DNA of 64,000 bases from an uncultured Acidobacteriota bacterium (GCA_963841905.1 CAWJEM010000011.1:4064-68063), one strand, 5' to 3'; shown: positions 1,802 through 57,823, counted from the stretch's first letter. Numbers and translations: made by a program. The notes: generated by a model from the sequence alone, not told the origin.

Positions 1802-4800
1802 CTAGAATCGGCTAACAACCGTCAACTGGAACGCCCGGGCCGGCTGCTGATTGACCATCAGCAGGAAGTTCGAGCTCCAGCTCTGGTACGCGCTGTTGTA
1901 GCTGTATTGGGTGTAGTTACCAGCGTTGAGCAGGTTGAAGAAGTTCCCCGCCACCTCCACCTGGTAGCGCTGATACCGCAGGGTCTTGCCGACCTTCAGG
2001 CCGATCGTCGTGATCAACGGTGACTGAACCTGACCTTCCCCGCGGTTGCTGAACACATAGCGATTGCGGGTCGCCAGCGGATTCGGTTGCGAGGACCCGT
2101 TAGCTAGTCGGACCGAGGGTGGCCCGTACCTGAGCACGTCTGGATCGTTGGCGGCCAGCTGATACAACGGCGATCCCGACCAGGGCCCGGCCTGGAACGT
2201 GGCGCTGGCGGCCACGTTGATGTCCCAGGGAGCCTGCCAGACGCCGCCGAGGTTGCCGCGATACTTCATCCATGTCGGGCCGTAGCTCAGGGCATTGCCC
2301 GTGTCAGGGAGCGAGTTCTCGTCGTTGTTGCCGCGCGGCATGTAGAGATTGGCGTCGTTGGCGAAGTGGTTCGGCTGCACGAAGCGGGCCGGGTCGGTCG
2401 GGTTCCACGTGCCGTCGATCTTGTGCCACTGCCGGGTGAAGCCGGCAATCAATTGGAAGCCCCGCGACATGTTCTTTGTCATGGTCAGCTCCAGCGCTTG
2501 GTACTTGAGCTGACTCCACGTGTTGTTCGTCTGCTGGAAGACGATCCCCTGGTTCGGGTCGACCCGTCCAAAACCCCCGAACGGCTGGCCCGGTCCATCG
2601 GGATAGAAGCCGTTGATGTCGATTCTCGCCCACGTGTCCTTGTACGCGCGGTTGATGTACGCCACATCCAGACCGATTTGCCACCCGAACTGCCGCCGGT
2701 ATCCCACGATGAACTCGTCGACGTACGGCTGATGCAGGTCGGGCGCGATCTGCTGCGCGGCCACGGCAGTCGATGTCGCCGGCAGGAGTTGGATCTCACC
2801 TGCCTCCCCAAACACTCCGTCGAGGTCGTTGTCGTACTCTCGTCGGAACGAAACCGTGTCGTCCGCGCCGAAGATGGTGACCCCGTCTCGTCCCATGACC
2901 TGTTCGCCCATTCGCGCGTAGCTGGCGCGCAGAACGTTCGTGGCATCCTGCGTCAGGAGATAGGTCGCTCCCACTCGCGGCTGCACCGCCCAGGATTTCT
3001 GGCGCGTGATGCCCTTGACCTCGTCAACACGCTTCACGTAGTCGAAGCGCATGCCGAAATTGGCGGTCAGGCGGGCGTCCGGCTTCCAGCTGTCCTGCAG
3101 GTAGAACGCGTAGTTGCTGTCGCGCGCCTGCCGAGTCTGCAGGCTAACGGGATCGGCGTAGTCACGCCGATACGGCACGGTGCCGAGCGAGGGATTGTTG
3201 ACATCGACGACCGTCTGGTATTCGCGGAAGAACCCGTTGTTGACGTACTCCCTCCGCTGGTCGTAGATGTTCTGCGGTTCGAGGAAGAACCCTGTGGCGA
3301 ACTCGTGCGATCCGATCCAGCCTGCCTTGTAGTACGTCGCATCGCCGCGAATCAGAGACAGCGACGCCGGCACGAAGGTTCGCGTCGGTCAGGTTCCCGC
3401 CCTCGAGGATGAGCGAGTTGCCCGTGATGAAACCGCTCGAGATGAGCGTGCCGTCGTAGATAACGATGTTCGGTCCCTGGGCGTCGAACCCGAACGCGTC
3501 GTAGGTGTCGTTGTCGTTGCCGCTCTTGTTGTTGTAGCCGGCCGAGAACGTCGTCGTCATTCTGTCGCCCCACGTCGACGTGATCTTGGCGCTGTAGACG
3601 TTGCCGCCATTCGAGTACACGTTGATGGGATCGAAGTAGTACTGCCAGTTGCTCTGGCCGTGCGTGCGGTCGCGCTGGAAGAACCCCGACAACTCGTGGG
3701 TGGCTCCGAGACGCGAGGTGACCTTCACATATGGCTGGTATCCCTTGATCTGCTGGGGGAACAAGTCTGTGCCGGGATAGTAACTCTGGATGTCGTTGAC
3801 GTTTTTCGAGTTCCGGCTGATCTGAGTCTCGACGGCTGACTTGCGGAACGAGGCGAAGAACCAGACCTTGTCCTTCATGATCGGCCCGCCGAACGAGCCG
3901 TCGAACTGACCGATGTCGGCCTGCACGGGCGTGCCGCCGGTTGTCGTGCATTCCAGGTTCGGGCAGGTTGAATGCTGGGCGAGCGGCGTCCCCGAGAGGT
4001 CGTAAACGGTCTTGTGGTGGGTGTTGTCGTGGTCCCAGCGGAGCGGCTGGTATGCGTACCCGGCGGTCCCTCTGAACGACGTTGCCGCCGCTCTTGGTGA
4101 TCACGTTGATCCCCAGACCGGTGCCCATCGGCGTGGACGCGTCGGACCCGCCCGTCTTGACGTGAATGTCCTGAATCATGTCCGACCCCATCTGCACGTA
4201 GGTGAGCTGGAAGTCGTTGTAGTTGCCCGCCTGCATGCCTTCGAGCTGCACGACGTGGGCGAAGTGTTCCGTGGCGTGCCCGAAGTACACCGATCGCCCG
4301 CTGCCGTCGTCGAAGGGTCTCGAGTGGACGCCAGGCGTCTGCTCGAGGAAGTCAGTCCAGTTCTTCCGGGCGGCAAGCGGCATCTGCTTCTGGAACTCGC
4401 CGTCGATGTTCAGTACGTTGCCGGGCTTGCTGACCTCCAGCATGGGCGAATCGCCCGAGACCGTGATGGTCTCGGCCAGTGTGCCGATCGCCATGACGAT
4501 GTCGACCTGAAAGTTCACGGCCGCGCGCAGCAGAATCCCCTTGCGTTCGTATGCCGAGAACCCCGGGAGCTCTGCGCTGACGGTGTACTCACCCGGGGGC
4601 AAGTTGATCAGACGGTAGTAGCCCGTCTCATCGGTGACGCCAGTTGCCGGCGTGATCATGTCGGGGCTTGTCGCGGTGACCGTGACACCCGGCAGCACTC
4701 CACCCTGTGCATCTTTGACGAAGCCTCGCAGGCTGCTGCCTGTGCTCTGCGCCTCTGCAAAGAACACGCTCGCATTCAATACAACGAGCAGGCAAATCCC

Positions 4801-4821
4801 GAATCGCGTAACACCTCTCAT
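1802..4821 (-). pseudogene. TonB-dependent-receptor-like outer-membrane protein with an N-terminal CarboxypepD_reg domain, interrupted by two +1 frame disruptions (~4077 and ~3355-3385)
   Basis: Three ORF-track pieces (3352..4842, 3162..3926, 1802..3373) join into one ~1000-aa protein. The first junction is ..INVITKSGGNV|FRGTAGYAYQPLRWDH..ADIGQFDGSFGG. The second is ..ILEGGNLTDANL|PASLSLIRGDATYYKAGW. The protein ends ..QLTVVSRF. A GGAGGA RBS precedes the ATG at 4821. An intact paralogue lies at 8796..11651. Confidence 0.8.
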
Positions 4822-4955
4822 GGCGATTCCTCCTGCCGACAAGACAGCAATCGGCCCGTGGGGGCCGCGGTTGACGAACTGACACCTCGGACTCGGACGA
4901 CGAAGCGAGATGCTAGTTTTCGCGGATGATAAGCGATCACTCGCACCGAATAAAG

Positions 4956-8795: not shown

Positions 8796-11651
8796 TCACC
8801 AATCGAACTTCGCGCCGAACCGAACGATCCGCGGCGGCACGATGTTGGACGGCCGCAGGAAGTTGCTCCCCGAGGCCAAAGTGATGTTCTGCTCCCCGTT
8901 GTTGTTGAACATGTTGAACACGTCGAAGAATCCCGCCAGGGTGCGGCTGCCACCCAGACGAATCATTTTCTCGACGCGGAGATCGAGGAGCGTGATGTTG
9001 TCCTGACGTATCGTCCCGAGTGGCTCGGCCAGGATGCGCTGCGTGCCAAAGGGCGGGCCGAAGTTGAACTGGAACGTCCGGCCCTGCGGCTGGCCGGACT
9101 GGTGCCGCAGGATGGGCGTCATCTTGATGTTCCACCACGGCGTGTCCCACGTGCCGTGCAGCTTGGCCTGCCACGTCGTGAAATGGTGCCGGCCGTCGAT
9201 GGTATTGATTTCGTCGTTCGGCGTGACCCGAAGATCGTTCTGCTTCACCGTGTTGCCGAAGTAGGCGTTCTCGAACTCCCTCACCCAGGTGTGCGCGAAA
9301 CTCGCCAGCAACGACCAGCGATTGCTGAAGCGCTTGGTGCCAGTGATTTCCCACGTGTAGAAGTCACTGTCGGAATCCGGAATGTTTTTCTGCACGTTGG
9401 CCGCCGGAAGGTTGAACCCTGCCGGCAGGTTGTACCCCTGAATCGGCGCGCCATCGTCAGCATTCCCGCGGGTGTTGTCAGGTCCGAGATCGGGAATCGT
9501 CACGGGGACCGTGTACGCGCTGTACGGACGGTTGACGTCGACGCGCTCGTAGCGCTGCCGCTGACCGCGCCACACCAAGCCGGTCCGTACGCCGAAGTTC
9601 GTCACCAGCTCGCGCTCGAACCACACGGCTGCTTCTCTGGTAAAGGTGTCTTCGAGATCCGGGTCCAGCGATTCGCTCGCCGCGCCGCCGGAGCGCTCGA
9701 TAATCGTCGATCCCTCCTCGCCCGGATCCCAGATGCCGTTGCCGTTCGGGTCGGTCCACGCATATCGCTTGAACCAGCCGCCATTGCGATTCGGGCTGAC
9801 GTTGAACCCAAAGTCGGCTCCCGGGTTCCACCAATACTGTCCGTAATTGAGTTTGACGATCGTCTTGCCGTTGCCCGTGATGTCGTAGGTGAACCCGGCG
9901 CGCGGTGAGACGAGGTTCCAGTTGATCACTTCGTCGACGGCAGCGAAGGTCTGCGGCGTCGGATTGAACCGGCTGACCGGATGCTCCTGTTCGGGGAGGT
10001 AGCCGACGTACTTATCGAAGCGAAGTCCAACGTTGACGGTGAGCCGATTGTTCATCCGCCACGTGTCGTTGACGAACCCCGCGTAGGTCCACAAACCGGT
10101 GATCCCTTCCCCCGGTTCGAAGAGATACACGTCAGTTGGCCTGCCGTTGTCCAGGCGATGCACCACGTCGTTCGGATAACCGTCAATCCAGGTGTCGACC
10201 GTTGTCTCGCGGAACATCTCGCCGCCGACTTTGAAGTTGTGGTTGCCGCCCCAGCCGTCTTTGAAGTAGCTCAACGTGCCGAGTACTTGATTGCGGCGCC
10301 GATCGCGATTCCAGTCGCGATTGCCGCCGGTGATGATGTTGTTCCCGGTGTCCTCGAACCGCGGACCGGTGCCATTGGGATGATTCGGCCAGTTGTAGCC
10401 AAACTGCCCGGCGCGAACTTCGAAGAACGTCTTATCGTTGATGACCGAATTCCATTCGCCCTTCCAGACCCAGCCCCAATACAACTGCTCCCACGTCGAG
10501 TCCTCGTTGACGTTGATGCCGGTCGTGTTGCCGAGCAGGAACGAGTCTTGTCGCAGCGGCTGATGCTTCCGGCCGGCCTGGGCATAACCGATCAGCTTGT
10601 TGTTTTCGCTGAGATTGTAGGTTCCCTTGCCACCGTAGTTGGTCAGCTGTGTCGGGTGAGGCTTGACCGGAAAGTTGGGGATTCTCGCGGCGACATACTG
10701 GTCGCGGAACGATCCGTACCACCACAGGCGATCCCGTATCACGCGGCCGCCGGCGCCCACGTTGACGTCGTGGTACTTGTGCAGCCGATTCAGGTCGCTT
10801 GGCTCCAGGCCGCCAGATGCCGTCAAACCGCGATTGATTTGATCCTGGTCGGTGTTACGCGACTGAATGCTCTCGTTCTCGTAGTCGCCGTAGAACGTCC
10901 CGTGGAAGTCGTTGCCCCCAGACTTGCTGATGAAGTTGGATTGAACGCCCGGCCATGGCATCTCGGCGCTGTGCGCCGCCGCATTGACCGCCACTTCATC
11001 AAACGACCCGTAGTCGTAGTAAAAACCCGCGGCATCGGTGCCCTCTGTCGCGACGATTCCCTCGACCGTGGGCCGGTTCTGACCAGACGTGCCATACGTG
11101 ACGTACCCCGTCTGTGTGCCAGCCGCGCTGCCACCGACGTCGATACGGTTCATCTGGACGCCAGGCGATTCAGCCAGGATGGCCCACAGGTCGCGCGCGC
11201 TCGGCAGGTTCGCCAGCTGCTTGGCGTCGAAGTTGGTGGTGATGGTGGTCGATTGAGTGTCAACCACCGGTGACTCGCCCGTGACCGTGACGCTTTCCTG
11301 CAGCGTCGCGACACCAAGCTCGACGTTCACGGTGGCCGTGAAGCCGAGGGTGACGCGGATTTCGTCACGCCGGACCGTGCCGAATCCAGAGAGCTCGTAG
11401 GTCAGCTGATAGACCCCTGGGGGAATTGCGGGAAAGCGATACTGTCCGTCGCCGGTCGTGACGGCGGTGCGAGTGCCCATCATCGATGGACTCGCAAGCG
11501 TGACGGTCACGCCGGGCAGGATCGCACCCGTGTTATCGGTCACACGACCATTGATTGCGCCGGTCGTTGCACTCACGGCTTGCGCCGCCGCAACAGACGT
11601 GGACAGAAGAAGGAGCGAAAGTGGTAGCGCGAGGAACCGAACCGAGGACAT
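8796..11651 (-). CDS. TonB-dependent-receptor-like outer-membrane protein with a CarboxypepD_reg domain (intact)
   Basis: The signal peptide MSSVRFLALPLSLLLLSTSVAAAQA follows an AAGGGAGG RBS. The protein contains GRVTDNTGAILPGVTVTL..GQYRFPAIPPGVYQL and ends in the barrel terminus ..RFGAKFDW. Confidence 0.85.
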   Translation of the reverse strand: MSSVRFLALPLSLLLLSTSVAAAQAVSATTGAINGRVTDNTGAILPGVTVTLASPSMMGTRTAVTTGDGQYRFPAIPPGVYQLTYELSGFGTVRRDEIRVTLGFTATVNVELGVATLQESVTVTGESPVVDTQSTTITTNFDAKQLANLPSARDLWAILAESPGVQMNRIDVGGSAAGTQTGYVTYGTSGQNRPTVEGIVATEGTDAAGFYYDYGSFDEVAVNAAAHSAEMPWPGVQSNFISKSGGNDFHGTFYGDYENESIQSRNTDQDQINRGLTASGGLEPSDLNRLHKYHDVNVGAGGRVIRDRLWWYGSFRDQYVAARIPNFPVKPHPTQLTNYGGKGTYNLSENNKLIGYAQAGRKHQPLRQDSFLLGNTTGINVNEDSTWEQLYWGWVWKGEWNSVINDKTFFEVRAGQFGYNWPNHPNGTGPRFEDTGNNIITGGNRDWNRDRRRNQVLGTLSYFKDGWGGNHNFKVGGEMFRETTVDTWIDGYPNDVVHRLDNGRPTDVYLFEPGEGITGLWTYAGFVNDTWRMNNRLTVNVGLRFDKYVGYLPEQEHPVSRFNPTPQTFAAVDEVINWNLVSPRAGFTYDITGNGKTIVKLNYGQYWWNPGADFGFNVSPNRNGGWFKRYAWTDPNGNGIWDPGEEGSTIIERSGGAASESLDPDLEDTFTREAAVWFERELVTNFGVRTGLVWRGQRQRYERVDVNRPYSAYTVPVTIPDLGPDNTRGNADDGAPIQGYNLPAGFNLPAANVQKNIPDSDSDFYTWEITGTKRFSNRWSLLASFAHTWVREFENAYFGNTVKQNDLRVTPNDEINTIDGRHHFTTWQAKLHGTWDTPWWNIKMTPILRHQSGQPQGRTFQFNFGPPFGTQRILAEPLGTIRQDNITLLDLRVEKMIRLGGSRTLAGFFDVFNMFNNNGEQNITLASGSNFLRPSNIVPPRIVRFGAKFDW

Positions 11652-11789
11652 GCCGCCTCCCTTCATCCGTTAGGACCCTCGCTGTTCGAGGGTCGAAGAA
11701 AGAACCGGATGTGAACCGCAACACGAACGCCGAACGCCGAAAGTAACAGGGCTCGCCGCGCGGTACGAAGACGAAATGGAAGGCGTGAT

Positions 11790-13742: not shown

Positions 13743-14231
13743 ATGAGCGATCGCAAGTACAAGCAGCGCGGTTATCAGGACGATGACCGCGATCGTCGGC
13801 CACCGCGGCAAGACGGTCAAGCGGGTGGACAGACGCAGGCTCGCCCCGAGCGTCTGCCGGGTGCACCCGCTGGCGCGCGGCGGATTTCGTCCGAAGGGGC
13901 CAAGAACCCCAACATGCCAGGCTTTCGCGAGGTGGCTCGCTGCTCGCGCTGCGGTGCGTTGGTCGACGCGCAGATCTTCTCGCGGAGCAAGTGCGCCAAG
14001 TGCGCTCAGGACTTGCGTTCTTGCGCACAGTGCGTGCATTTCGATCCGGGGGCGCGACTGGAATGCACGCAGCCCATTGTGGCGCGAGTTTCGCCCAAGG
14101 ATGCGGCCAACGAATGCACGTTTTTTTCGCCACGCACCTCGTGGGAGCGCGAGACCTCATCCGCCGTCAGCAGCAAGCCGTCTGAGCCATCCGGCGCGAA
14201 GAAGGCGTTCGACGACCTCTTCAAGTTCTAG
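13743..14231 (+). CDS. Hypothetical Cys-rich (zinc-ribbon-like) protein with a charged, disordered N-terminus
   Basis: 162 aa containing CSRCG..CAKCAQDLRSCAQCVHF..C..C. No family was recognised. Confidence 0.55.
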   Translation: MSDRKYKQRGYQDDDRDRRPPRQDGQAGGQTQARPERLPGAPAGARRISSEGAKNPNMPGFREVARCSRCGALVDAQIFSRSKCAKCAQDLRSCAQCVHFDPGARLECTQPIVARVSPKDAANECTFFSPRTSWERETSSAVSSKPSEPSGAKKAFDDLFKF

Positions 14232-14257: not shown

Positions 14258-14926
14258 ATGGCTCTGTTGTCGGCACACGACGAGCAAACCCTCACACAGC
14301 ACCTGGCGACAATCGACACGCCGGTCACGCTGCTCCTGTTCACGCAAGCGATCGGCGGATCGGAGACCGGACCGGTCGCCAAGCAGATTCTGACCGAGGT
14401 TGCGCGCCTCAACGACAAGATCACGGTTGAGGAAAAGAGCTTCGTGCTCGACCTCGAGGAACGCTCCAAATACGGCGTGGACAAGGCGCCTGCAATCGTC
14501 ATCCTCCGCGACGGTCAAGACACGCGCATGCGAATGTACGGAGCCCCCACGGGATACGAGTTCGTGGGTCTGATCGAAGCCGTTCACATGGCCGGTAGCG
14601 GCAAGGTCGATCTCGCGCCGACCACACTCGCACTCGTCGCCAAGGTTGACACGCCGACCAATATTCAGGTCTTCAGCACCCCCACCTGACCTCATTGTCC
14701 CAGGGCGGTCGTCCTGGCGCATCAGATGGCATTCTCGAACCCGGTGATCACATCGGCCGCGATCGAAGCTACCGAGTTCATGGATCTCACACGCAGGTAT
14801 CGAGTGTCTGGCGTCCCCAAGACGATCGTCAACGACACCGTGGAGATCATGGGTGCGCTTCCTGAAGAAATGTTCGTGCGCGCAGTGCTGCAATTGCCGG
14901 ATGAAGACGAACCCGCCCCAGCCTGA
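14258..14926 (+). CDS. Two-domain thioredoxin-fold protein disulfide oxidoreductase (PDO/glutaredoxin-like) with in-frame TGA (14687-14689), read as selenocysteine in a U-P-H-C redox motif
   Basis: ORFs 14258..14689 and 14726..14926 share one frame and are separated only by a TGA. The joined sequence is ..IQVFSTPT-U-PHCPRAVVLAHQMAFSNPVITSAAIEATEFMDLTRRYRVSGVPKTIVN. The joined length of 222 aa is typical for the family. Confidence 0.75.
14696..14721 (+). promoter_or_regulatory. Candidate SECIS-like hairpin downstream of the TGA at 14687
   Basis: The stem is tgtcCCAGG-gcggtcgt-CCTGGcgca: a 5-bp core plus 3 outer pairs, with an 8-nt G-rich loop. It starts 7 nt after the TGA. Confidence 0.45.
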
Positions 14927-25395: not shown

Positions 25396-25485
25396 GGAGG
25401 GATGGCCGAGTGGTTGATGGCGGCGGTCTTGAAAACCGTTGTACCCGAAAGGGTATCGGGGGTTCGAATCCCTCTCCCTCCGCCA
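25396..25485 (+). tRNA. tRNA-Ser (anticodon UGA)
   Basis: The acceptor stem is GGAGGGA/TCCCTCC followed by G-CCA. The anticodon loop is CTTGAAA, the long variable arm is TACCC-GAAA-GGGTA, and the T-loop is GGTTCGAAT. Length is 90 nt. Confidence 0.9.
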
Positions 25486-26848: not shown

Positions 26849-28138
26849 TCACTCGACTCGCTCGATTTTCTGGCGGCCGCCCATGAACGGCCGCAGCGCT
26901 TCGGGAATCACGATCGACCCGTCAGCCTGCTGATAGTTCTCGACGATCGCGATCCACGTACGGCCAACCGCCAGCCCCGATCCGTTGAGTGTGTGAACGA
27001 ATTCGGCCTTGCCCGATCCCTCCGGGCGATACCGAATCGCCGCGCGCCGGGCTTGAAACGCCTCGCAGTTCGAGCAGGACGAGATCTCGCGGTACAGCTT
27101 CTGGCTCGGGAGCCAGACTTCGATGTCATAGGTCTTGGCCGCCTGGAACCCCATGTCGCCCGTGCAGAGAAGAACCGTGCGATACGGTAAGCCGAGCACC
27201 TGCAACACCCGTTCAGCGTCGGCCGTCAACCGCTCGAGTTCGTCATAGGACGTCTCGGGCGCGCTGAACTTCACGAGCTCGACTTTGTCGAACTGGTGCT
27301 GACGGATCAGCCCGCGCACGTCGGCGCCGTAGGACCCGGCCTCGCTCCTGAAACAGGGCGTGTAGGCCGTGTACTTGAGCGGCAACTTGCGGCCGTCGAG
27401 AATCTCGCCGCGATACAGGTTCGTCACTGGCACTTCGGCAGTGGGGATCAAATAGAGATCCCAGTCGCCTGCGATCTTGAAAAGATCCTGCTCGAACTTC
27501 GGCAACTGCCCCGTCCCGTACAGCGTCGCGCTCGATACCAGGAATGGTGGCTCGATTTCGGTGTAGCCATGCGACTCTGAATGCAGGCTCAGCATGAAGT
27601 TGATCAACGCGCGTTCGAGCTGAGCGCCCGCACCGGTCAGAATGGCAAACCTCGCGCCCGAGATCTTCGTCGCCCGCTCGAAGTCGAGTATCCCGAGCGC
27701 CGGGCCGAGGTCGTAATGAGCCTTCGGTTCGAAGTCAAAGGCCGGCGGCTCGCCCCAGGTTCTTACGACGACGTTGTCGGCTGCGCGCGCGCCAACCGGC
27801 ACCGATTCGTGGGGGATGTTCGGGAGGGTGGCAAGGAGGCTCGCGCGTTGCTGTTCGACCGATGACAGCTCAGTCTCCAGTTGCTTGATCTTCTGCGCGC
27901 GCTGCTTGTTGGCATCGACGATCGGCGTTGCATCCAGGCCTTGCCGTTTGGCGCGCGCCACTTCGTCGGCAGCCGCGTTCTGTTCCCGCTTCAGGTTTTC
28001 GAGGATGGGGATCTTTTGGCGGCGCTGCGCCTCGAGCGTCGCCAACTGCTCGAGCTCCGCGCTCAGGTCGACCCCACGTGCGCTGAGACGCTGGCGCACA
28101 GTATCAACTTCGTCACGAATGAATGCAGGGTCCAACAT
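26849..28138 (-). CDS. serS: Seryl-tRNA synthetase
   Basis: Starts [18 protein letters not shown] at 28138. It has an N-terminal coiled coil and class II motifs (..FRSEAGS.., ..GSGLAVGRT..). Length is 429 aa. Confidence 0.9.
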
Positions 28139-28160
28139 GTCGAGAGTTATCCTATAGCGA

Positions 28161-29057
28161 ATGCCGCAGCCCATCAGAAAGGCCGTCTTCCCCGCCGCTG
28201 GTCTCGGAACGCGATTCCTCCCCGCAACGAAAGCCCAACCAAAGGAGATGCTGCCGCTCGTCGACAAGCCCACCATTCAATACGGTGTCGAGGAGGCGGT
28301 GGCTTCGGGTGTCTCCAATCTGATTCTGGTGACCGGCCGCGGCAAGAACGCGATTGAAGATCACTTCGACGTCTCGTCCGAGCTCGAAGCGCTGCTCGAG
28401 CGTCGTGGCAAGACCGATCTCCTCAATGAGATTCGACAGATCTCCAACCTCATCAACGTCGGCTACGTGCGACAGGGCGAGCCACTGGGACTGGGACACG
28501 CCGTACTGGTGACCAAGGCGTTGGTTGGCAATGAGCCGTTTGCCGTCGTCCTGGGGGATGATGTGATCGACGCGAGTCCGCCGGCACTGCAGCAGATGAT
28601 CGAGGTCTACAACCGATTGGACGCCCCGGTGCTCGCGGTCGAGCGCGTCCCTGAATCCGACGTGTCAAACTACGGGATCGTCGACGTCGATCCCGCCGAG
28701 TCGCTGGGACCCACTGTTCATCGCGTGCGCGACCTGGTTGAGAAGCCGCCGCGCTCGGAGGCGCCATCCAACCTCGCGATCATTGGCCGCTACCTGTTGA
28801 CACCCGACATTTATCCCGCGCTCGAGGCGACATCTGAAGATCGGACCGGCGAGATTCAGCTGACCAACGGGCTTCGCCGCCTGCTGAAGTCGAGACCGAT
28901 CTACACCTGCGAAATCTCAGGCGTCAGGCACGACACCGGCAACAAGCTGGGCTACCTGAAAGCGATGGTTTACTTCGCGCTGCGACGACCTGACCTCGCC
29001 GAGCCCTTCCGAGAGTACCTGGAAAGCCTCGATCTCGGGACGCCAGTCAAACGATAG
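28161..29057 (+). CDS. galU: UTP--glucose-1-phosphate uridylyltransferase
   Basis: The N-terminus is [41 protein letters not shown]. Confidence 0.9.
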
Positions 29058-38957: not shown

Positions 38958-41459
38958 CTAGCCCTCCTCTGGCGGAGAAGCTACTACTTCTTCATCACGT
39001 TCCACAAGGGCGACCGACACGACGCTGTCGTCCTCCCCGAGATCCATCACGCGAACGCCTTGCGTAGCGCGACCGATGGTGCGGATATCGGCGGCCGGCG
39101 TCCGGAGAATCTTGCCCTGTTGGGTGATGACCAGCAGCTCGTTGTTCTCGTGCACCTGGGCGATGCCGACCACGGGGCCGTTTTTCTCGGTAATCTCCAG
39201 GTTCTTCAGGCCGAGGCCGCCGCGGCTCTGGACGCGATACTCCTCGAGATCGGTCCGCTTGGCATACCCCTTCTGCGTCACCGTCAACAGGGTGCCGCCC
39301 GGTTTGACGACCTCCATGGCCACGACCTGGTCGCCCTCCCGCAACTGAATGCCCCGGACGCCGTACGCCGTTCGTCCCATGCTCCGGACATCATCTTCGC
39401 TGAAGCGGATCGCCATCCCCATTCGTGTGCCGATGAAGATCTGGCTTTCGCCGTCGGACAGTCGGACGGCCATCACCTCGTCGTCTTCTTCAATGCCCAT
39501 CGCGATGATGCCGCCCGCCCGCGGGTTGCTGAACGATGCCAGCTCGGTCTTCTTGATCGAGCCCTTGCGCGTCCCCATGACGATGAAGTGCTTCTCGTCG
39601 AAGTCCAGAACGGGCAACATCGCCGCTGTTTTCTCCCCTGGCTGCATCTGCACGAGGTTGGCGATGGCTTTGCCCTTGCCGTCCGGGCCGACATCCGGGA
39701 TCTCGTGAACCTTGAGCCAATACGCCCGGCCGCGATCCGAGAACACCATCATGTAGGCATGTGTCGAGGCCACGAACAGGTGATTGACGACATCTTCTTC
39801 GCGCGTTCGCATGCCGATGCGGCCTTTGCCGCCTCGCTTTTGATTGCGGTAGGTCGAAATGGGTGTCCGTTTGATGTAGCCGGTATCGGTGACGGTGATC
39901 GCCACGTCCTCGTCCGCGATGAGATCCTCGATGCTCAGCTCGCCTTCCTGGTCCAGGATGGTCGTGCGCCGGTCGTCGCCGAACTTGCTCTGCACCCCGC
40001 GCAGCTCGTCGATGATGATCTCGAGCAGCAATCGATCGCTGGCAAGGATTTCGCGCAAGCTTCCGATGAGCGCGACGAGCTCGCCCAGTTCATCGAGGAT
40101 CTTCTGGCGTTCCAAGCCGGTCAGCCGTTGGAGCTGCATGTCGAGGATGGCCTGGGCCTGCAGCTCACTCAACCCGAATTCGGAGACCAGTCCGGCCTTT
40201 GCCTCCAGTGGATTCTTCGACGCTCGAATCAGCGCGATCACGGCGTCGAGCTTGTCGAGGGCAATCCGCAGGCCCTCGAGGATGTGCGCCCGCGCCTCGG
40301 CCTTGCGAAGCTCGAACTCGATGCGCCGGCGGACGACCTCGCGCCGGAACTGAACGAACTCCTCGATGACCTCTAGCAGCGTCAGCACTCGCGGCCGGCC
40401 GGCAACGATGGCGAGCATGATGATGCCGAACGTCTGCTGCAGCTGCGTGTGTTTGTAGAGGTTGTTGAGGATGACCTCGCCCACTTCGCCGCGCTTCAAC
40501 TCGATCACGACGCGCATGCCGTCGCGATCCGACTCATCACGAATGTCAGAGATGCCTTCGATGGTCTTGTCGCGAACCAGGTCGGCAACGCGTTCGAGCA
40601 GCCTCGCTTTGTTGACCTGATAAGGAATTTCGGTGATGACGATCTGCGATCGATCGCCCTTCTTCATGGGCTCGATCTCCGCCTTGGCGCGCATCTGCAC
40701 GCCACCGCGGCCGGTCAGATACGCCTCGCGGATCCCCGAGCGCCCCACGATGAGCCCGCCGGTGGGGAAGTCGGGACCGGGAATACGCTCGATGAGCCCC
40801 TTGAGCTTCTGCTCCCGCGTCAAGGTCGTCCGCGGCGCCGGTCCGGGCGCCGGAGGCATCAGCGTCTGCTCGATGAGCCACACCGCGCCTTCGATGACCT
40901 CGCGAAGGTTGTGGGGTGGGACGTTGGTCGCCATGCCGACTGCGATACCAGCCGACCCGTTGACCAAAAGACTCGGAAACGGCGTGGGCAGGACCGTCGG
41001 TTCGTGCGTCGTTTCGTCGAAGTTGGGAACGTAGTCGACGGTGTCCCGGTCGAGGTCGGACATCATCGATTCCGACAACGCCTCGAGGCGGGCTTCGGTG
41101 TACCGATAGGCCGCCGGCGGATCCCCATCGACGGACCCAAAGTTGCCCTGGCCGTCGACCAGCGTGTAGCGCATGTTGAAGTCCTGCGCCAAACGGACGA
41201 GCGTATCGTAAGCCGGCGCATCGCCGTGCGGGTGATAGTTGCCGATCACCTCGCCGACGATCTTCGCGCACTTGCGATGCGCACGATTCGAGGCCAGGCC
41301 CATCTGCCGCATGGCGTACAGCACGCGCCGATGCGCCGGTTTCAACCCGTCGCGAACGTCAGGCAGCGCCCGCCCGATGATCACGCTCATCGCGTAATCG
41401 AGGTACGAGCGGCGCATTTCGTCTTCGATGTTTACGGGAATACGTTGTTCGGTGGTCAT
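38958..41459 (-). CDS. gyrA: DNA gyrase subunit A
   Basis: 833 aa. Contains ..NYHPHGDAPAYDTLVRLAQDF.. and the active-site region AAYRYTEARL. Confidence 0.95.
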   Translation of the reverse strand: MTTEQRIPVNIEDEMRRSYLDYAMSVIIGRALPDVRDGLKPAHRRVLYAMRQMGLASNRAHRKCAKIVGEVIGNYHPHGDAPAYDTLVRLAQDFNMRYTLVDGQGNFGSVDGDPPAAYRYTEARLEALSESMMSDLDRDTVDYVPNFDETTHEPTVLPTPFPSLLVNGSAGIAVGMATNVPPHNLREVIEGAVWLIEQTLMPPAPGPAPRTTLTREQKLKGLIERIPGPDFPTGGLIVGRSGIREAYLTGRGGVQMRAKAEIEPMKKGDRSQIVITEIPYQVNKARLLERVADLVRDKTIEGISDIRDESDRDGMRVVIELKRGEVGEVILNNLYKHTQLQQTFGIIMLAIVAGRPRVLTLLEVIEEFVQFRREVVRRRIEFELRKAEARAHILEGLRIALDKLDAVIALIRASKNPLEAKAGLVSEFGLSELQAQAILDMQLQRLTGLERQKILDELGELVALIGSLREILASDRLLLEIIIDELRGVQSKFGDDRRTTILDQEGELSIEDLIADEDVAITVTDTGYIKRTPISTYRNQKRGGKGRIGMRTREEDVVNHLFVASTHAYMMVFSDRGRAYWLKVHEIPDVGPDGKGKAIANLVQMQPGEKTAAMLPVLDFDEKHFIVMGTRKGSIKKTELASFSNPRAGGIIAMGIEEDDEVMAVRLSDGESQIFIGTRMGMAIRFSEDDVRSMGRTAYGVRGIQLREGDQVVAMEVVKPGGTLLTVTQKGYAKRTDLEEYRVQSRGGLGLKNLEITEKNGPVVGIAQVHENNELLVITQQGKILRTPAADIRTIGRATQGVRVMDLGEDDSVVSVALVERDEEVVASPPEEG

Positions 41460-47950: not shown

Positions 47951-48161
47951 GTATCTGTTTTCTCCGTGGCTTACAGGCGCTTGCCGGTTCGTCCCGACTT
48001 GCGCCGATTACGCCGCCGAGGCAATCGCTCGCCATGGCCTGGTCCGAGGCGGGTGGCTTGGAATGGTCCGGCTGTGCCGATGCCACCCGTTCGGTGGGTC
48101 GGGATTCGATCCCGTCCCCCACCCGACTGAACATTCATCCCACTCACATCCGACCCGCTGA
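47859..48161 (+). CDS. yidD: Membrane protein insertion efficiency factor YidD
   Basis: The core is [52 protein letters not shown]. The start is uncertain (GTG at 47859 or earlier). It overlaps the end of rnpA. Confidence 0.75.
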
Positions 48162-49849
48162 TGGAACGTCGCGTTCTGCTCGCTATTACGCTCTCCTTCG
48201 TGGTGCTAGTCGCGTTTCAGGCACTGTTCGTCCCGCCGCCTGCGCCGCCTGCCAATACCACGCCGGCAACCGCCGCGACGGTCGCGGCGCCGGAGCCCGT
48301 CGTGCCGGCCCCCCCCGTGACGGCGGCTCCGATCTTGCCTGCTGCCACACCTTCGCTGCTGGTCGGCGACACGGCTGAACGCGAAATCACGGTTGAGACG
48401 CAAAAGGTCCGGGCAGTCTTTAGCAACCGGGGCGGCCGCCTGCGGCATTGGGTCCTCAAGGAGTACAAAAACGATGCGGGACAGCCGCTGGATCTGATTC
48501 CCGAATCCATCCCGACCGATCTGCCGTGGCCATTCTCGCTGCGCGTCGACGACGCCGCAGCCACCACGCGGCTGAACGACGCCCTGTATCGGGTATCTGG
48601 AGCCGAGGGCGCATCCGTTGACGCGACGGCCACGCCGACCACACTCGCCTTCGAACTGGAAACGGCTGAGGGGCTCCGGGCCCGCAAGGTGTTTTCCTTT
48701 GAGCCCGCCTCGTTCGTCGTGTCCTTTACCGCGCAGGTGCAGCAGGGGAACGAGGTGTTGAACCCGACGGTGGAGTGGGGCCCTGGGCTGGGCGACGGCA
48801 TCGCTCGCACACAACCCGGATCCTTCCTGTCACCGGCCTACACGTATCTCGCGCAAGCGATCTACCACCAGGACGGAGAGGTCGTGCGCGCGCCCGCCAC
48901 GTCGATGGGCAGCGGCATCGTCCGGGAAGGCCAGCTCCGCTGGGCAGGGGTGGATGATCATTACTTCATCAGCGCAGTGCTGCAGCCCGCGTCGCCGGCG
49001 CGTCTCGAGTATCGACCGGTGTCGATACCAGCGCCCTCGGGGCCACAGATGATTGGCCAGTACGTGGCCTACGCGGTGCAATTTCCCGCCGCTCCTGAGA
49101 ACGCCCGCTTTTTCGTCGGTCCCAAGCAGCTCGATGTGATGCGAAGCATCGATCCGGAGTTCACGCGCGCCATCTACTTTGGAATGTTCGCCTGGCTGGC
49201 CGCGCCACTGCTCGACGCGCTGCGATGGGTCCACGGATTCGTCGGCGATTGGGGTTGGGCGATTATCGTTCTAACGATCCTCATCAATCTCGCGATGGCG
49301 CCGCTCCGTCACAAGAGCGTTGTTTCGATGCGGAAGATGCAGGAACTGCAGCCGCACATGAAGGCCATTCAGGAACGATACGCCAAGTACAAGATCACCG
49401 ATCCTGAACGGCAGAAGATGAACACGGAGGTCATGGAGCTCTATAAGAGCCGGGGCGTGAATCCAGCCAGTGGCTGCGTGCCAACGCTCCTGACCATGCC
49501 CTTCTTGTTTGCCTTTTACGCCATGCTCGGGCAGGCCATTGAAATTCGCGGGCACGATTTTCTGTGGGTTCCAGACCTGTCGGGCGCCGACACCTACTAC
49601 ATCCTTCCGGTGTTGATGGGGGCCTCGATGTTCTTGCAGATGCGGATGACACCCGCGTCCGCCGACCCGACGCAACAGCGAATCATGATGTTCATGCCCA
49701 TCATGATCACGGTGACGATGCTCTTTGCGCCGGCAGGCTTGGTGATCTACTGGTTTGTCAGCAACCTGTGGACGATTGGCCAGCAGTACTTCACGAACTC
49801 AGTGCTCGGGCATCCGAAGGTGCCGGCGCGCGCCGGCTCGAAGCCGTGA
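48161..49849 (+). CDS. yidC: Membrane protein insertase YidC
   Basis: 562 aa, containing ..WGWAIIVLTILINLAMAPLRHKSVVSMRKMQELQPHMKAIQERY... Confidence 0.95.
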   Translation: MERRVLLAITLSFVVLVAFQALFVPPPAPPANTTPATAATVAAPEPVVPAPPVTAAPILPAATPSLLVGDTAEREITVETQKVRAVFSNRGGRLRHWVLKEYKNDAGQPLDLIPESIPTDLPWPFSLRVDDAAATTRLNDALYRVSGAEGASVDATATPTTLAFELETAEGLRARKVFSFEPASFVVSFTAQVQQGNEVLNPTVEWGPGLGDGIARTQPGSFLSPAYTYLAQAIYHQDGEVVRAPATSMGSGIVREGQLRWAGVDDHYFISAVLQPASPARLEYRPVSIPAPSGPQMIGQYVAYAVQFPAAPENARFFVGPKQLDVMRSIDPEFTRAIYFGMFAWLAAPLLDALRWVHGFVGDWGWAIIVLTILINLAMAPLRHKSVVSMRKMQELQPHMKAIQERYAKYKITDPERQKMNTEVMELYKSRGVNPASGCVPTLLTMPFLFAFYAMLGQAIEIRGHDFLWVPDLSGADTYYILPVLMGASMFLQMRMTPASADPTQQRIMMFMPIMITVTMLFAPAGLVIYWFVSNLWTIGQQYFTNSVLGHPKVPARAGSKP

Positions 49850-49924
49850 ACGGTCGTGTGGACGCACGCTGTCGCCCGCACGCGCTCGCGACAAACGCGC
49901 ACGTGCTCCCGACACTTACGCACT

Positions 49925-50027
49925 CGCCCAATCCGATCGCCCAATCGCCCAATACAATCACTCAATCGCGGAATCACCCATTGCAACCACCCAATCACCC
50001 ACTCACTCATTCACTAGATCCCAATGG
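49925..50027 (+). repeat. Word array W-P: single-stranded C/A-rich octamers of the (C/G)NCCCAAT type running up to the jag start codon
   Basis: The 8-mers are CGCCCAAT x3, CACTCAAT, CGCGGAAT, CACCCATT, CACCCAAT, CACCCACT, CACTCATT, CACTAGAT and CCCAATGG. They are interrupted by the 5-mers ccgat, acaat and gcaac. No complementary arm lies nearby. Confidence 0.85.
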
Positions 50028-50470
50028 CTACACCTGTTGAAATCGGCACGTTCGTTGAGAAGGTCGTCTCCGCGATGGGGCTCACGCTGAAGGCAGAGAC
50101 CGAGGAGATGGAGGACGGCTTGCGCATCAATCTGACGGGTGAGGATGGGTCATTGCTCATTCGACGGCAGGGCGAAGCGCTGGCGGCGCTGCAGCATGTT
50201 GTTGCCGCCGTCTTTCGACAGGAAGTGGACGAGCGCCGGCGACTGGTCGTCGACTGCCTGGGCTATCGTCGTGGCAAGGACGCCGAGTTGAAACAGATGG
50301 CGACGTTTCTCGCCCAGAAGGCGCGTGACACCGGTCTCGCCCAGGAGATTGGCCCACTCAACCCCTACGAACGGCGAATCGTGCACCTGGCCGTTGGCGA
50401 GGTCGAATCGGTCTCTTCGGAGAGCATTGGCGACGCCTTCGAGAAAACCGTGATCATTTCGGTGAAATAG
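50024..50470 (+). CDS. jag: RNA-binding protein Jag/KhpB (KH plus R3H domains)
   Basis: 148 aa with an R3H-type motif ..LNPYERRIVHLAV.. at the conserved position after yidC. Confidence 0.85.
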   Translation: MATPVEIGTFVEKVVSAMGLTLKAETEEMEDGLRINLTGEDGSLLIRRQGEALAALQHVVAAVFRQEVDERRRLVVDCLGYRRGKDAELKQMATFLAQKARDTGLAQEIGPLNPYERRIVHLAVGEVESVSSESIGDAFEKTVIISVK

Positions 50471-50473
50471 CAG

Positions 50474-50516
50474 GGCACGGAAACACGCGCTTCCGTGCCT
50501 TGTCTTTCATCGTTTA
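50474..50516 (+). terminator. Rho-independent terminator after jag
   Basis: The stem is GGCACGGAA-acacgcgc-TTCCGTGCC (9-bp perfect), followed by the T-rich run ttgtctttcatcgttt. Confidence 0.65.
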
Positions 50517-50561
50517 ACCACTGACGGCTACGCCGGCGGCTGAGACTCCGTCGGACCCGCG

Positions 50562-51917
50562 ATGTTTGACACCGATGACACGATTGTCGCAATCGCGACG
50601 CCGATCGGACGCTCCGGGCTGGGTGTCGTCCGGCTCAGTGGTCCCGCATCGGCGACGATCGCGCGCGATCTGGTTCATCGCACCCCGCCGTTCGTCGCTC
50701 GACATGCGACGCTAGCCCGCCTGCGCACGCTGGGCGTGAGTGACGAAGTGATCGTCACGGTCTTCGTCGCGCCTCACTCGTATACCGGCCAGGAGGTCGC
50801 TGAGATCAGCGTGCACGGCAGCCCAATGGTCTTGCAGGGCGTGCTGCGTGAGGCGATCGCGAACGGGGCGCGTTTGGCAGAGCCCGGTGAGTTCACGCTG
50901 CGCGCGTTTTTGAACGGCAAACTCGATCTCGTGCAGGCCGAAGCCGTCGGAGACTTGATCGAAGCGGTCACGCCGCTCCAGGCTCGGGCGGCGTTCGATC
51001 AACTTCAAGGCACGCTGACCGTCCGGATTGCCGGGCTCGAGCAACGCCTCTTTGATTTGACGGCGCGTCTCGAGGCTTCCCTCGATTTTCCGGACGAAGG
51101 CTATCACTTTGTGCAGCGCCAGGCGGCCGGCAACGAGATCAGCGCGTTGACCGAGCAAGTCGCAACAATCCTGGCGCAAGCTGGTCGCGGGCGATTGATA
51201 CGAGAAGGCGCGAGTGTTGCGATTGTCGGGACGCCCAACGTCGGCAAGTCGAGCTTGTTCAACGCGCTGCTCAACGCCGAGCGCGCCATTGTCACGCCGA
51301 TTCCGGGCACGACGCGCGATCTGCTCACCGAACGCGCCGACATTCGTGGCCTGTCGGTCGGCCTGGTTGATACCGCCGGTCTCCGCGATTCGAATGACCT
51401 CGTCGAACAGGAAGGCATCGCTCGCGCGCACCGAGCGGCCGACACGGCCGACCTCAGGCTCGTCGTTCTTGATCGATCGCGGGCGCTTTCTGCGGCCGAT
51501 CGGGCCCTGATTGCCTCGTTGTCACCAGATGCGCGAGTGCTCGTCGTCAACAAAACGGATCTGCCGGCTGTATGGACGGTCGATCAGGAAGCCCTCGCGG
51601 ACGCGGTTGCGGTCTCCACGAAGACGGGCGAGGGACTGCCGCAATTGATGGACCGAATGGCACAGGCACTGGGGGAGCAAAGCGAGACCCATGACGATCC
51701 GCTCGTCACGAACGTGCGCCACATCGCCTTGCTGGAATCGACTCGAGCTGCTCTGAGTCGCGCGCTTGACGCGCTGTCGCCAACGTCGTCACCCTCCGAA
51801 GAGTTCATTCTTGCGGACCTGCAGGAGGCGGCGTCCCACCTTCAAGAAATCACGGGCAAGCGAACCACCGACGATCTGCTGCGTCACATCTTCGAGCGTT
51901 TTTGCATTGGTAAATGA
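50562..51917 (+). CDS. mnmE: tRNA modification GTPase MnmE
   Basis: Contains the G1 motif GTPNVGKSSL and the C-terminal CIGK. Confidence 0.95.
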   Translation: MFDTDDTIVAIATPIGRSGLGVVRLSGPASATIARDLVHRTPPFVARHATLARLRTLGVSDEVIVTVFVAPHSYTGQEVAEISVHGSPMVLQGVLREAIANGARLAEPGEFTLRAFLNGKLDLVQAEAVGDLIEAVTPLQARAAFDQLQGTLTVRIAGLEQRLFDLTARLEASLDFPDEGYHFVQRQAAGNEISALTEQVATILAQAGRGRLIREGASVAIVGTPNVGKSSLFNALLNAERAIVTPIPGTTRDLLTERADIRGLSVGLVDTAGLRDSNDLVEQEGIARAHRAADTADLRLVVLDRSRALSAADRALIASLSPDARVLVVNKTDLPAVWTVDQEALADAVAVSTKTGEGLPQLMDRMAQALGEQSETHDDPLVTNVRHIALLESTRAALSRALDALSPTSSPSEEFILADLQEAASHLQEITGKRTTDDLLRHIFERFCIGK

Positions 51918-52023
51918 ATCGGGGAGGGACGGTCCCTTTGACAAAGACCCCGGTCATCCGGCGCCAGCCGTATGATCAAGAGAGAGCCTAGAATAAGTAA
52001 ATCAGATAGACAGAGCATTATAG

Positions 52024-53898: not shown

Positions 53899-54560
53899 CC
53901 GCTCGCGAGTTTCGCGAGCGGTTACACCGCCGCGCGCGACGCGCTGGCGTCCCGATTGACGCAGACTTGACGCTGGCTTTTGAGCGCTACTACGACCTTC
54001 TCACGCGGTGGAACGCCAAGATCAACTTGACGTCGCGTCTGGAACCGGCCGGCCAGGATGAGAGCATCGACCGCCTCCTGATTGAACCGCTGGTGGCCGC
54101 GCGACACATTCAACCGCAGAGCCGAACGTTGATCGATATCGGTTCCGGGGGCGGATCACCAGCGATCCCTCTCGTGCTTTCGACGCCGCGTCTCCACCTG
54201 CGAATGGTTGAGGCCAAGACGCGGAAGGCGGTGTTCCTGCGCGAGGCGATTCGAGAGCTTCGAATCGGACGCGCCGAGGTTGAGATGTCTCGCTTCGAGG
54301 AGTTGCTCACGCGTCCCGAGCTGCATGAGGCACTGGATGTGGTAACGGTTCGCGCTGTGCGAATGGAGCCGCGCACGCTTCTGAGTCTGCAAGCGTTTCT
54401 CAAGCCCGGTGGCCAGGTGTTTCTCTTTCGTGGGCCTGGCGGCGGCGATGGCGCGGGGACCATTACGCCGCCGCTGTCTTGGACGGCTACCTATCCGCTC
54501 GTCGAATCACTCCGCTCGCGCCTGGTCGTTTTGGAAAAGAAGCCGATCGGAAGGGGCTAA
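53895..54560 (+). CDS. rsmG: 16S rRNA (guanine527-N7)-methyltransferase RsmG
   Basis: The SAM motif [15 protein letters not shown] is present. It overlaps the mnmG stop by 4 nt. Confidence 0.9.
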
Positions 54561-54561
54561 C

Positions 54562-54575
54562 GTTCCACGTGGAAC
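54562..54575. other. parS-like 14-bp perfect palindrome GTTCCACGTGGAAC upstream of parA
   Basis: It begins 2 nt after the rsmG stop. The core is identical to the copy at 52674. Confidence 0.75.
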
Positions 54576-54578
54576 ACT

Positions 54579-54710
54579 GGGCGGGGAACAGGGCACAGGG
54601 CAAGGGCACAACGAACGGCACAACGAAACGGCACAACGAAAAGGGCGGAGCTTGTGGCATCCTGCGCCCTGCGCCCTGCGCCCTGCGCCCTGCGCCCTGC
54701 GCCCTGCGCC
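54579..54710. repeat. Composite word array W-F: a GGGCA-type arm, 3 x GGCACAACGA(n)C units of 12/13/14 nt, and 7 perfect CTGCGCC heptamers
   Basis: The GGGCA-type arm gggcggggaaCAGGGCACAGGGCAAGGGCAC lies at 54579-54609. The GGCACAACGA(n)C units GGCACAACGAAC, GGCACAACGAAAC and GGCACAACGAAAAG lie at 54605-54643. (CTGCGCC)x7 lies at 54662-54710. Confidence 0.9.
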
Positions 54711-54812
54711 CTGAGAACGCTTGCGCGCTGCGATTCCCAGGCGTAAGCTGTGACCCGGCAGGTCTCCCGCAAACGCCTCTAATTCGATGAATTAGGTCAA
54801 AAACCAGAAAAA

Positions 54813-55688: not shown

Positions 55689-55691
55689 TTG

Positions 55692-55835: not shown

Positions 55836-55847
55836 AAAAGGTGAACG

Positions 55848-56773: not shown

Positions 56774-57823
56774 ATGTCACGGGCCCACAGGAAGCGACTG
56801 ACCGAGATGGTCAGTTGCGCTGGTTGAGCGAGCAAACTCGCGCCCAGCGAGCTCGCTCAGGTTCTGAGCCATCTACCGGCGTCGAATGATCCCCGAGTCC
56901 TGGTCGACTTCAGGACTCATGACGATGCGGGTGTGTACCTGTGGGAGGGCGGCCCGGCGCTGGTGCAGACGGTTGACTTCTTTACACCCATCGTCGACGA
57001 CCCGTACATCTACGGCCAGATCGCCGCCGCCAACGCTTTGAGCGATGTCTATGCGATGGGCGGCCGGCCATTGACGGCACTGGCGATCGCAGGCTTTCCG
57101 AAGAGTGGTCTCGAGCCAGAAGTCATCGCGGCAGTGTTTCAAGGAGGCTTTGACAAGCTGCGTGAAGCCGGCGTCGCCCTGCTTGGCGGACACACCGTGC
57201 AAGACGACGAGATCAAGTTCGGCTACGCCGTAACGGGGGCCGTCGATGCTGCGCGGGTGCTGACGAACGGGGGCGCAAGACCTGGTGACGCGCTCCTTCT
57301 GACCAAACCGCTGGGAACCGGCGTCGTCGGCACCGCAATCAAATTCGATCGCGCGTCCCCGGCACTCGTCGATCAAGCGGTCGAGTCCATGCGCCGGCTG
57401 AATCGCGCAGCGGCCGAAGCCCTCGCGACGATCGACGGCGTGCACGCTTGCACCGACGTGACTGGCTTTGGACTGATCGGACACGGTTCTGAAATGGCCG
57501 TGGCCAGCCGAGTCACCTTCAACATCCGGGCTGCAGACGTCCCGCTATTCGACCACGTGCTCGAGATCGCCCGTCAGAACCGCTCTGGAGGGTTGGCGGC
57601 CAACCGCGAGCACTTCGAAGCTATCGCGCAGATCGACACCAAAGTGCCGGAAGCGCTTCAGGATCTCCTCTTCGACCCTCAAACGTCCGGCGGGCTCTTG
57701 GTGGCCGTCGACCAGCTGCAGGCCGACTTGGCGCTGCAAGCCCTTCTCAGCGCTGGGGTTCAGGCCGTCCGTATTGGAAACGTCGGACCCCGTTCGCAGA
57801 CCGCAGCCCTGGTTATTAGGTGA
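56774..57823 (+). CDS. selD: Selenide, water dikinase (selenophosphate synthetase) with in-frame TGA (56825-56827) read as selenocysteine-18
   Basis: The upstream in-frame sequence is MSRAHRKRLTEMVSCAG-U-ASKLAPSELAQVLSHLPASNDPRVLVDFRTHDDAGVYLWEGG.., continuing into ORF 56933..57823. U sits at the catalytic Cys/Sec position with Lys three residues later. The joined length is 349 aa. Confidence 0.85.
56826..56858 (+). promoter_or_regulatory. Candidate SECIS hairpin overlapping and following the selD TGA
   Basis: The structure is GAGCGAG-caaa-CTCGC-gccca-GCGAG-CTCGCTC: a 7-bp outer stem, a 4-nt bulge, a 5-bp inner stem and a 5-nt loop. Confidence 0.55.

Follow-up and report, generated by a model that had tools for sequence, protein, structure and literature searches.

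A two-unit protein disulfide oxidoreductase gene of uncultured Acidobacteriota with a conserved in-frame UGA and a predicted selenocysteine

Within a 64,000-nucleotide stretch of DNA from an uncultured Acidobacteriota bacterium (GCA_963841905.1, CAWJEM010000011.1:4064-68063; hereafter the window, with positions counted from its first letter), the plus-strand interval 14258..14926 is very probably one intact and functional gene in which a UGA codon is read as selenocysteine (Sec). Its coding sequence (CDS) comprises 222 codons and a terminal TGA and specifies a two-unit thioredoxin-fold protein disulfide oxidoreductase (PDO), a homologue of the N-terminal domain of AhpF. The locus has the structure of a single gene, its part downstream of the UGA is under selection, the UGA is conserved, and the hairpin that follows the UGA is both conserved and covarying. 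An earlier interpretation made from this DNA alone (the sequence-only reading) had proposed a probable selenoprotein divided into two open reading frames (ORFs); the proposal is supported by cysteine-containing homologues, by the ratio of nonsynonymous to synonymous substitution (dN/dS), by the conservation of the TGA, by the hairpin and by a Sec-type selD gene in the same window.

The interrupted frame and its conservation

The frame is opened by an ATG at 14258, interrupted by a single TGA at 14687-14689 and closed, with no further stop, by the TGA at 14924-14926. Conventional translation yields two ORFs of the same frame, 14258..14689 (143 aa) and 14726..14926 (66 aa), which agrees with the sequence-only reading of one frame split by one TGA. 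The read-through peptide given there, with U after VFSTPT, is reproduced by translation as ...VFSTPT-U-PHCPRAVVLAHQMA...IEATEFMDLTRRYRVSGVPKTIVN, and around the recoded codon the 222-aa product reads ...IQVFSTPT-U-PHCPRAVVLAHQMAFS... The UGA (14687..14689) corresponds to residue U144, the N-terminal, attacking residue of a U-P-H-C motif, and is aligned with the first Cys of the CPHC motif of homologues. The resolving cysteine of the motif, Cys147, is encoded by TGT at 14696..14698, and this Cys column is invariant among Sec and Cys forms.

A search of a large protein collection returned 2,840 matches, the best full-length ones being 212-238 aa long and 55-72% identical. The TGA column is occupied by the first Cys of a C-P-H-C motif in all of these best full-length matches, which align strongly to the C-terminus; the same correspondence between U144-P-H-C147 and C-P-H-C is found in the 16 full-length homologues aligned, in three Cys-form species genomes and at four Cys-form loci of three further relatives. 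The alignment with Cys homologues, at 57-72% full-length identity, is thus continuous across the TGA and places the first Cys of C-P-H-C exactly at U. Homologues neither end at the TGA nor lose their conservation beyond it, as both the alignment and purifying selection continue downstream. The joined length of 222 aa is typical of homologues that span 212-238 aa, in line with what had been said of it from the sequence alone.

The TGA is kept at all nine metagenome loci, in each of which the downstream frame is uninterrupted. In a survey of one genome per GTDB species (36 loci, mostly labelled Acidobacteriota or Vicinamibacterales), 33 of the 36 genomes have TGA at this codon, and the other three, which are the most distant (53-56% identity), have TGC; together with the four further Cys-form loci of three relatives, the Cys-form genomes carry TGC or TGT. 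The nearest genomes are two uncultured Acidobacteriota metagenome-assembled genomes (MAGs; CAWDJL010000013.1 and CAVTGK010000018.1) at 98% identity. Nine metagenome contigs and 33 species genomes make up 42 independent assemblies with TGA at 64-99% protein identity, none of them with a frameshift or an extra stop, and the catalytic PHC and the VPK motifs are conserved downstream. Given its presence in 42 independently assembled relatives, the TGA is not a sequencing error for TGC or TGT. Three MAGs labelled 'uncultured cyanobacterium' or 'Acidimicrobiia' also carry the gene and its neighbourhood at 67-69% identity (L016, L031, L036), for which mislabelled or mis-binned assemblies are a more likely explanation than horizontal transfer.

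In comparisons with relatives whose proteins are 88-90% identical, the codons after the TGA have a dN/dS of 0.10-0.14 and those before it one of 0.10-0.11, and the proportion of synonymous differences (pS) is 0.28 after the TGA and 0.37-0.38 before it. Since dN/dS is equal on both sides, translation and constraint extend beyond the TGA just as they apply before it, which excludes a pseudogene. A global reassignment of TGA is not indicated either, because TGA is the ordinary stop of 15 of the 30 family-supported genes in the window, including the terminator of the PDO gene itself.

Automatic annotation nevertheless divides the gene, as the sequence-only reading had anticipated. Gene calls at all nine metagenome loci consist of a 143-aa product, a 36-nt gap and then a product of 57-66 aa, the shortest of which is clipped by a contig end; wherever a domain match is recorded for these downstream calls, it is Thioredoxin_3. 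The closest protein matches (88-99% identity) are 143-aa proteins that end exactly at ...STPT, some of which bear the JGI name 'alkyl hydroperoxide reductase subunit AhpF', a label that is misleading for such fragments.

For profile searches, the read-through product with Cys substituted at the UGA was used as the query. It matches the NCBIfam model TIGR02187 'PDO_seleno_TRX' at 230 bits (curated cutoff 185), with residues 7-212 covering profile positions 3-208 of 209, and Pfam Thioredoxin_3 over residues 135-211. Full-length PDOs of known structure are matched over residues 1-212, namely those of Aquifex aeolicus (2ywm/2ayt, E 2e-33), Pyrococcus horikoshii (1j08, E 8e-31) and P. furiosus (1a8l, E 3e-29), and the AhpF N-terminal domain (1zyn, 1hyu) is a more distant match over residues 12-194 (E ~1e-13 to 2.5e-13). 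At the sequence level, alignment to 1j08, 1a8l, 2ayt and 2ywm suggests two tandem thioredoxin-fold units. These matches uphold the earlier description of the UGA region as the C-terminal active-site unit of a two-domain PDO/glutaredoxin-like protein, and the loss of cysteines that it reported for the N-terminal unit is likewise borne out: residues 1-143 contain no Cys, and the N-unit has S-E-T-G opposite C-E-S-C of the Aquifex PDO. All acidobacterial homologues aligned share this loss, with (S/P)-(E/D/P)-(S/T)-(G/A/V) at the same place, so that it is not peculiar to this gene. By inspection, the N-terminus MALLSAHDEQTLTQ... has no hydrophobic signal-like segment.

Other family assignments were rejected. 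AhpF proper is excluded by the lack of a flavoprotein part (the protein is only 222 aa long, ends at 14926 and has no fused FAD/NADH thioredoxin-reductase-like portion, whereas whole AhpF has ~520 aa) and by scores far under the AhpF cutoffs (TIGR03140, 61 bits against 503; TIGR03143, 83 against 688). Nor is the protein a two-CXXC PDO of the archaeal/Aquifex type, as S-E-T-G leaves no CXXC in the N-unit. Despite the shared P-H dipeptide it is not a DsbA, PF01323 scoring 17.7 bits against a cutoff of 25.6 and matching only the C-terminal 38 residues.

The hairpin after the UGA

Directly behind the UGA, on the plus strand, lies a hairpin with the features of a bacterial Sec insertion sequence (bSECIS). 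Its core, 14700..14717, has a 7-bp stem (14700-14706 with 14711-14717) and the apical loop GGUC (14707-14710), and a weak 3-bp extension pairs 14696-14698 with 14719-14721. The sequence-only reading had placed a hairpin at 14696-14721, the outer limits of the extended structure. The hairpin exists and its core is well supported, but the lower extension is not, one of its pairs being unpaired in 11 of 30 distinct sequences. The bSECISearch model asks for a loop of 3-9 nt, an upper stem of 4-16 bp, a G within the first two loop positions (G, then G/U), and, with the apical loop 16-37 nt away from the UGA, a free energy of -7.5 kcal/mol or lower (PMC13188914). The hairpin agrees with the model throughout, having a loop of 4 nt that begins with GG, a stem of 7 bp, a spacing of 17 nt and a free energy of -10.7 kcal/mol, and the GG at the loop start is invariant in the 30 distinct sequences. 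A model-compliant hairpin occurs at 8% of random window positions and one equally good at 2.6%. By itself, the hairpin is therefore modest evidence; its conservation and covariation are strong evidence. A scan of the window at Rfam gathering thresholds returned only the tRNA-Ser and no SECIS family, a result that carries little information.

Among close relatives, no part of the gene is invariant over a longer distance than the 35 nt of 14687-14721, which comprise the UGA and the hairpin and have variable third positions on either side. Codons 149-152 (AGG GCG GTC GTC, encoding Arg, Ala, Val and Val) show zero synonymous variation among 41 distinct Sec-form genes, while the nearby four-fold codons T141, P142, A154 and A158 have a codon entropy of 1.3-1.8 bits. 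Among all 7-codon windows of the gene, the lowest synonymous entropy is that of codons 149-155.

Of the 30 distinct sequences, 15 have C-G at the stem pair 14701-14716 and the other 15 have G-C, and none leaves it unpaired. The observed covariation score was reached by 0 of 500 shuffles, and when the 3' partners were slid along the sequence the paired cells fell from 95% to 31-57%. Both changes of the pair are synonymous (Pro148, CCC/CCG; Leu153, CTG/CTC), so that protein-level selection cannot explain their correlation. On a neighbour-joining tree made without the hairpin region (unbootstrapped), the pair switched in at least two events.

Three Cys-form loci (L046, L047 and L049) serve as a control. 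They encode the identical peptide PHCPRAVVLA with other codons (CGC/CGG for Arg, GTG for Val) and have no such hairpin. These three were taken because the Cys-form loci L041-L043 can fold a different hairpin in a shifted register; with its loop GUCA and a z-score of ~+0.3, it is no better than shuffled sequence, and these loci were rejected as cases of simple hairpin loss. At L049 (GCA_964653955.1, CAZZGM010000013.1; PDO gene 2501-3160), the codon is TGT, yet the rare AGG Arg codon and some of the codons of the SECIS stem are present. This locus is possibly a recent conversion from Sec to Cys with a decaying 'fossil' SECIS, in which the hairpin no longer folds.

selD and the decoding of the UGA

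The window also encodes selenophosphate synthetase. By tblastn with an E. coli SelD sequence as the query, selD was located at 56774..57823 on the plus strand, with 41% identity to that query and a stop opposite its Cys17. The UGA (56825-56827) is residue U18 of the motif G-U-A-S-K, which fits the UxxK signature listed for Sec-containing SelD (PMC13188914), and the part of selD after the TGA scores 317 bits with TIGR00476. The claim that selD is itself Sec-encoding thus holds, its TGA standing where E. coli has Cys17. Regular expressions for motifs of the U-G-C-K type gave no match to selD, because the motif here is G-U-A-S-K. Among 80 metagenome relatives fetched, 77 have a readable N-terminus and 50 of these keep the TGA; it is present in all readable relatives of at least 65% identity, and nearly all more distant ones have TGC or TGT. 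Nearly all 50 TGA-type selD genes share a near-invariant downstream sequence that can form a hairpin. Two candidates were observed in it, a nested stem that includes the UGA itself and a second hairpin, GCUCAG-GUN-CUGAGY, 33 nt downstream; the inner hairpin, at a distance of only 14 nt, is nearer to the UGA than the consensus of 16-37 nt allows.

From two independent, conserved genes with a UGA and a hairpin, and from a Sec-dependent SelD that is viable only in a Sec-decoding cell, we infer that selA, selB and selC are likely to be present elsewhere in the genome. A window-wide scan for long ORFs with in-frame TGA gave 282 candidates, among which off-frame noise predominated owing to the high G+C content, and we propose no additional selenoprotein. 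Two ORFs with sizes like those of selA and selB turned out to be mnmE and mnmG.

Several observations weigh against Sec insertion or temper its support. No tRNA-Sec was found in the 64-kb window, selA and selB are not among the window ORFs annotated, and ARAGORN detected no tRNA-Sec near selD at 44 selD-bearing related loci. The thermodynamic stability of the PDO hairpin is unexceptional for a G+C-rich sequence (shuffle z-scores of -0.65 to -1.2), and its covariation comes from one pair, the sole variable pair of the stem. No thioredoxin reductase or peroxiredoxin is found among the ~35 annotated window ORFs, and selenium incorporation at the UGA is a prediction.

Among the alternatives to Sec, the one that survives best, although we hold it to be very unlikely, is that the UGA is recoded to Cys or Ser by a selC*-type tRNA(Cys)UCA or by an acidobacterial allo-tRNA acting as an opal suppressor, perhaps in a hairpin-dependent manner. 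A selC* tRNA(Cys)UCA accompanied by a second SelB copy has been reported, as have allo-tRNAs of Acidobacteria that may be nonsense suppressors, but selC* genes were not found in Acidobacteria (PMC5389517). The identity of the inserted amino acid lies beyond sequence analysis alone. Against this alternative stands SelD, an enzyme required for making Sec, which is encoded in the window by a gene with the same kind of UGA; the canonical SECIS model for Sec also fits the hairpin, including the GG at the start of the loop. Furthermore, the insertion of Cys would give a UGA with a hairpin no evident gain over a plain Cys codon, and yet 33 species genomes retain the two.

It is highly improbable that the locus encodes two proteins, a 143-aa N-unit without Cys and a 66-aa C-terminal piece translated from the ATG at 14726. 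Both ORFs do exist, with an ATG in place for the second. Sec decoding in bacteria is usually inefficient, and for this reason some truncated 143-aa product is probable as a by-product. The 36-nt gap between the ORFs, however, encodes PHCPRAVVLAHQ, which equals the Cys homologues residue for residue, and a product that starts at 14726 would miss the entire redox motif and, from its thioredoxin fold, the first strand and the first helix. This ATG also has no purine-rich ribosome-binding site before it, the preceding bases being those of the hairpin. The chance that the gene is broken, with the TGA as a nonsense mutation or assembly error and a decaying remnant downstream, is practically negligible: gene callers do give two fragments and standard translation does halt at 14689, but the TGA recurs in the 42 assemblies, dN/dS downstream is as upstream, frameshifts and extra stops are absent, and PHC and VPK are conserved.

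If the UGA is decoded as Sec, the hairpin within the CDS would recruit SelB with Sec-tRNA(Sec) to the ribosome, and Sec144 would be inserted in place of termination. The product is predicted to be a cytoplasmic two-unit PDO with its active site U144-P-H-C147 in the C-terminal unit and an N-unit without redox cysteines. By analogy with characterized PDOs and with the AhpF N-terminal domain, the selenolate would act as the nucleophile on a substrate disulfide, a selenenylsulfide would form with Cys147, and a thioredoxin-reductase-like flavoprotein would reduce it again. Electrons could in this way be passed to a peroxiredoxin or to other disulfide substrates, as in the archaeal chain from thioredoxin reductase via PDO to peroxiredoxin or in the transfer from the AhpF N-terminal domain to AhpC; the electron-transfer partners suggested here are taken purely from this analogy.

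Genomic surroundings and relation to known systems

The only gene tightly linked to the PDO gene is a Cys-rich ORF of 162 aa at 13743..14231 on the plus strand, which ends 26 nt before the PDO start. Its N-terminus is basic/acidic and of low complexity, and its C-terminal half is rich in Cys, with three CxxC motifs and two further Cys. The ORF adjoins the PDO gene at all 35 genome loci with upstream sequence, three Cys-form loci included, and is a probable operon partner of the PDO gene. It has no Pfam or NCBIfam match, and nearly all of its ~3,300 homologues are named 'hypothetical protein'. The 162-aa protein was also seen to be better conserved than the PDO itself. That it is a partner or substrate of the PDO is speculation. 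It is conceivable, though we consider it doubtful, that the Sec-containing PDO and the 162-aa protein form a dedicated two-gene redox module, with the Sec form kept across nearly the whole order Vicinamibacterales and with clade-wide selenium dependence if these organisms are aerobes. Cultured representatives of the Vicinamibacterales are aerobes. Aerobic bacteria rarely retain selenoproteins (PMC13188914), and clade-wide selenium dependence, if true and if the members are aerobic, would run contrary to this generalization.

Elsewhere in the window, a multihaem cytochrome c7/c3-type protein of 237 aa is encoded at 799-1512 on the minus strand, and a similar gene is found near the PDO locus of the Cys-form L047; this may be relevant to whether strict aerobiosis can be assumed for these organisms. 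Two overlapping minus-strand ORFs in different frames, 1802-3373 and 3352-4842, belong to one TonB-dependent-type outer-membrane protein, whose beta barrel is encoded by the former (OMP_b-brl_4, profile positions 297-816) and whose N-terminal CarboxypepD_reg domain is encoded by the latter. A frameshift in the gene or an indel in the assembly seems to account for the split, and an intact paralogue of 956 aa is present at 8796-11666. The sole tRNA of the window, a tRNA-Ser with anticodon UGA (25396-25485, plus strand), lies ~1.4 kb from the seryl-tRNA synthetase gene (26849-28276, minus strand). gyrA is located at 38958-41459 on the minus strand, and an origin-proximal block at 48161-63839 contains yidC, mnmE, mnmG, rsmG, parA, parB and selD, followed by ATP synthase genes, with selD between parB and atpF.

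The locus is a genuine selenoprotein gene, as far as can be predicted, and a member of an already catalogued family; neither a new mechanism nor a new family is involved. The find is fairly ordinary, because the UxxC family of the TIGR02187 type is already listed and the NCBIfam model has 'seleno' in its very name. No paper naming Vicinamibacter together with selenocysteine or selenoproteins came up in a literature search, and for this reason a clade-wide acidobacterial Sec form of PDO appears not to have been specifically described before. A specialist would not be surprised by the gene; its use lies in annotation, and its presence in a soil lineage is mildly notable. Public metagenomes split it into a 143-aa 'AhpF' and thioredoxin fragments of 57-66 aa, and because of this systematic splitting a redox-active protein of a widespread soil lineage is absent from protein catalogues. 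We contend that Sec decoding, a Sec-containing SelD and a Sec-containing PDO are maintained across many Vicinamibacterales species. This would extend a selenoprotein family, so far recorded mainly in anaerobes and thermophiles, to a clade of soil Acidobacteriota, and it hints that an abundant group of soil bacteria may require selenium.

The TIGR02187-type UxxC family is among the predicted prokaryotic selenoprotein families (PMC13188914, Table 1; PMC1794560, Table 1), with Carboxydothermus hydrogenoformans ABB15282.1 and a member from Symbiobacterium thermophilum as listed examples (PMC13188914, Table 1; PMC1794560, Tables 1 and 3). In the 2006 survey, the family was counted in C. hydrogenoformans and S. 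thermophilum, and selenoproteins were recorded in Acidobacteria (PMC1794560). The present protein resembles the known members in matching the same NCBIfam model over its full length, in its two-unit architecture of ~220 aa, in having Sec as the first residue of the C-terminal UxxC, and in the SECIS located within the CDS directly after the UGA; the comparison with ABB15282.1 was made by the shared family profile and the published listing. It differs in its host, a soil Acidobacteriota of the Vicinamibacterales and not a thermophilic anaerobic Firmicutes or Symbiobacterium, and in the frequency of the Sec form, which is the rule here (33 of the 36 species genomes); the count of 2006 came to no more than a handful of members.

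With the PDOs of hyperthermophiles (2ayt, 2ywm, 1j08, 1a8l), the protein shares full-length homology, tandem thioredoxin units and the position of the motif in the C-unit, but each unit of the hyperthermophile proteins has its own CXXC (in Aquifex, CESC and CGYC), in contrast to SETG and U-P-H-C here. The AhpF N-terminal domain (1zyn, 1hyu, 4o5q) likewise consists of two thioredoxin folds with a redox dithiol in the second only. Unlike that domain, the present protein stands alone at 222 aa, with no fused flavoprotein part and no ahpC or trxB nearby. As an electron carrier from a thioredoxin-reductase-like flavoprotein to peroxiredoxin, the AhpF N-terminal domain nevertheless offers what is probably the best functional analogy.

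The SECIS of E. coli fdhF is the textbook example of a stem-loop in the CDS right after the UGA, with the tetraloop GGUC at nt 22-25. The putative SelB-binding element of the PDO gene has the same GGUC apical loop, here at nt 21-24 counted from the U of the UGA. Its stem sequence is unrelated to that of fdhF, and the upper part of the stem shows no obvious bulged U.

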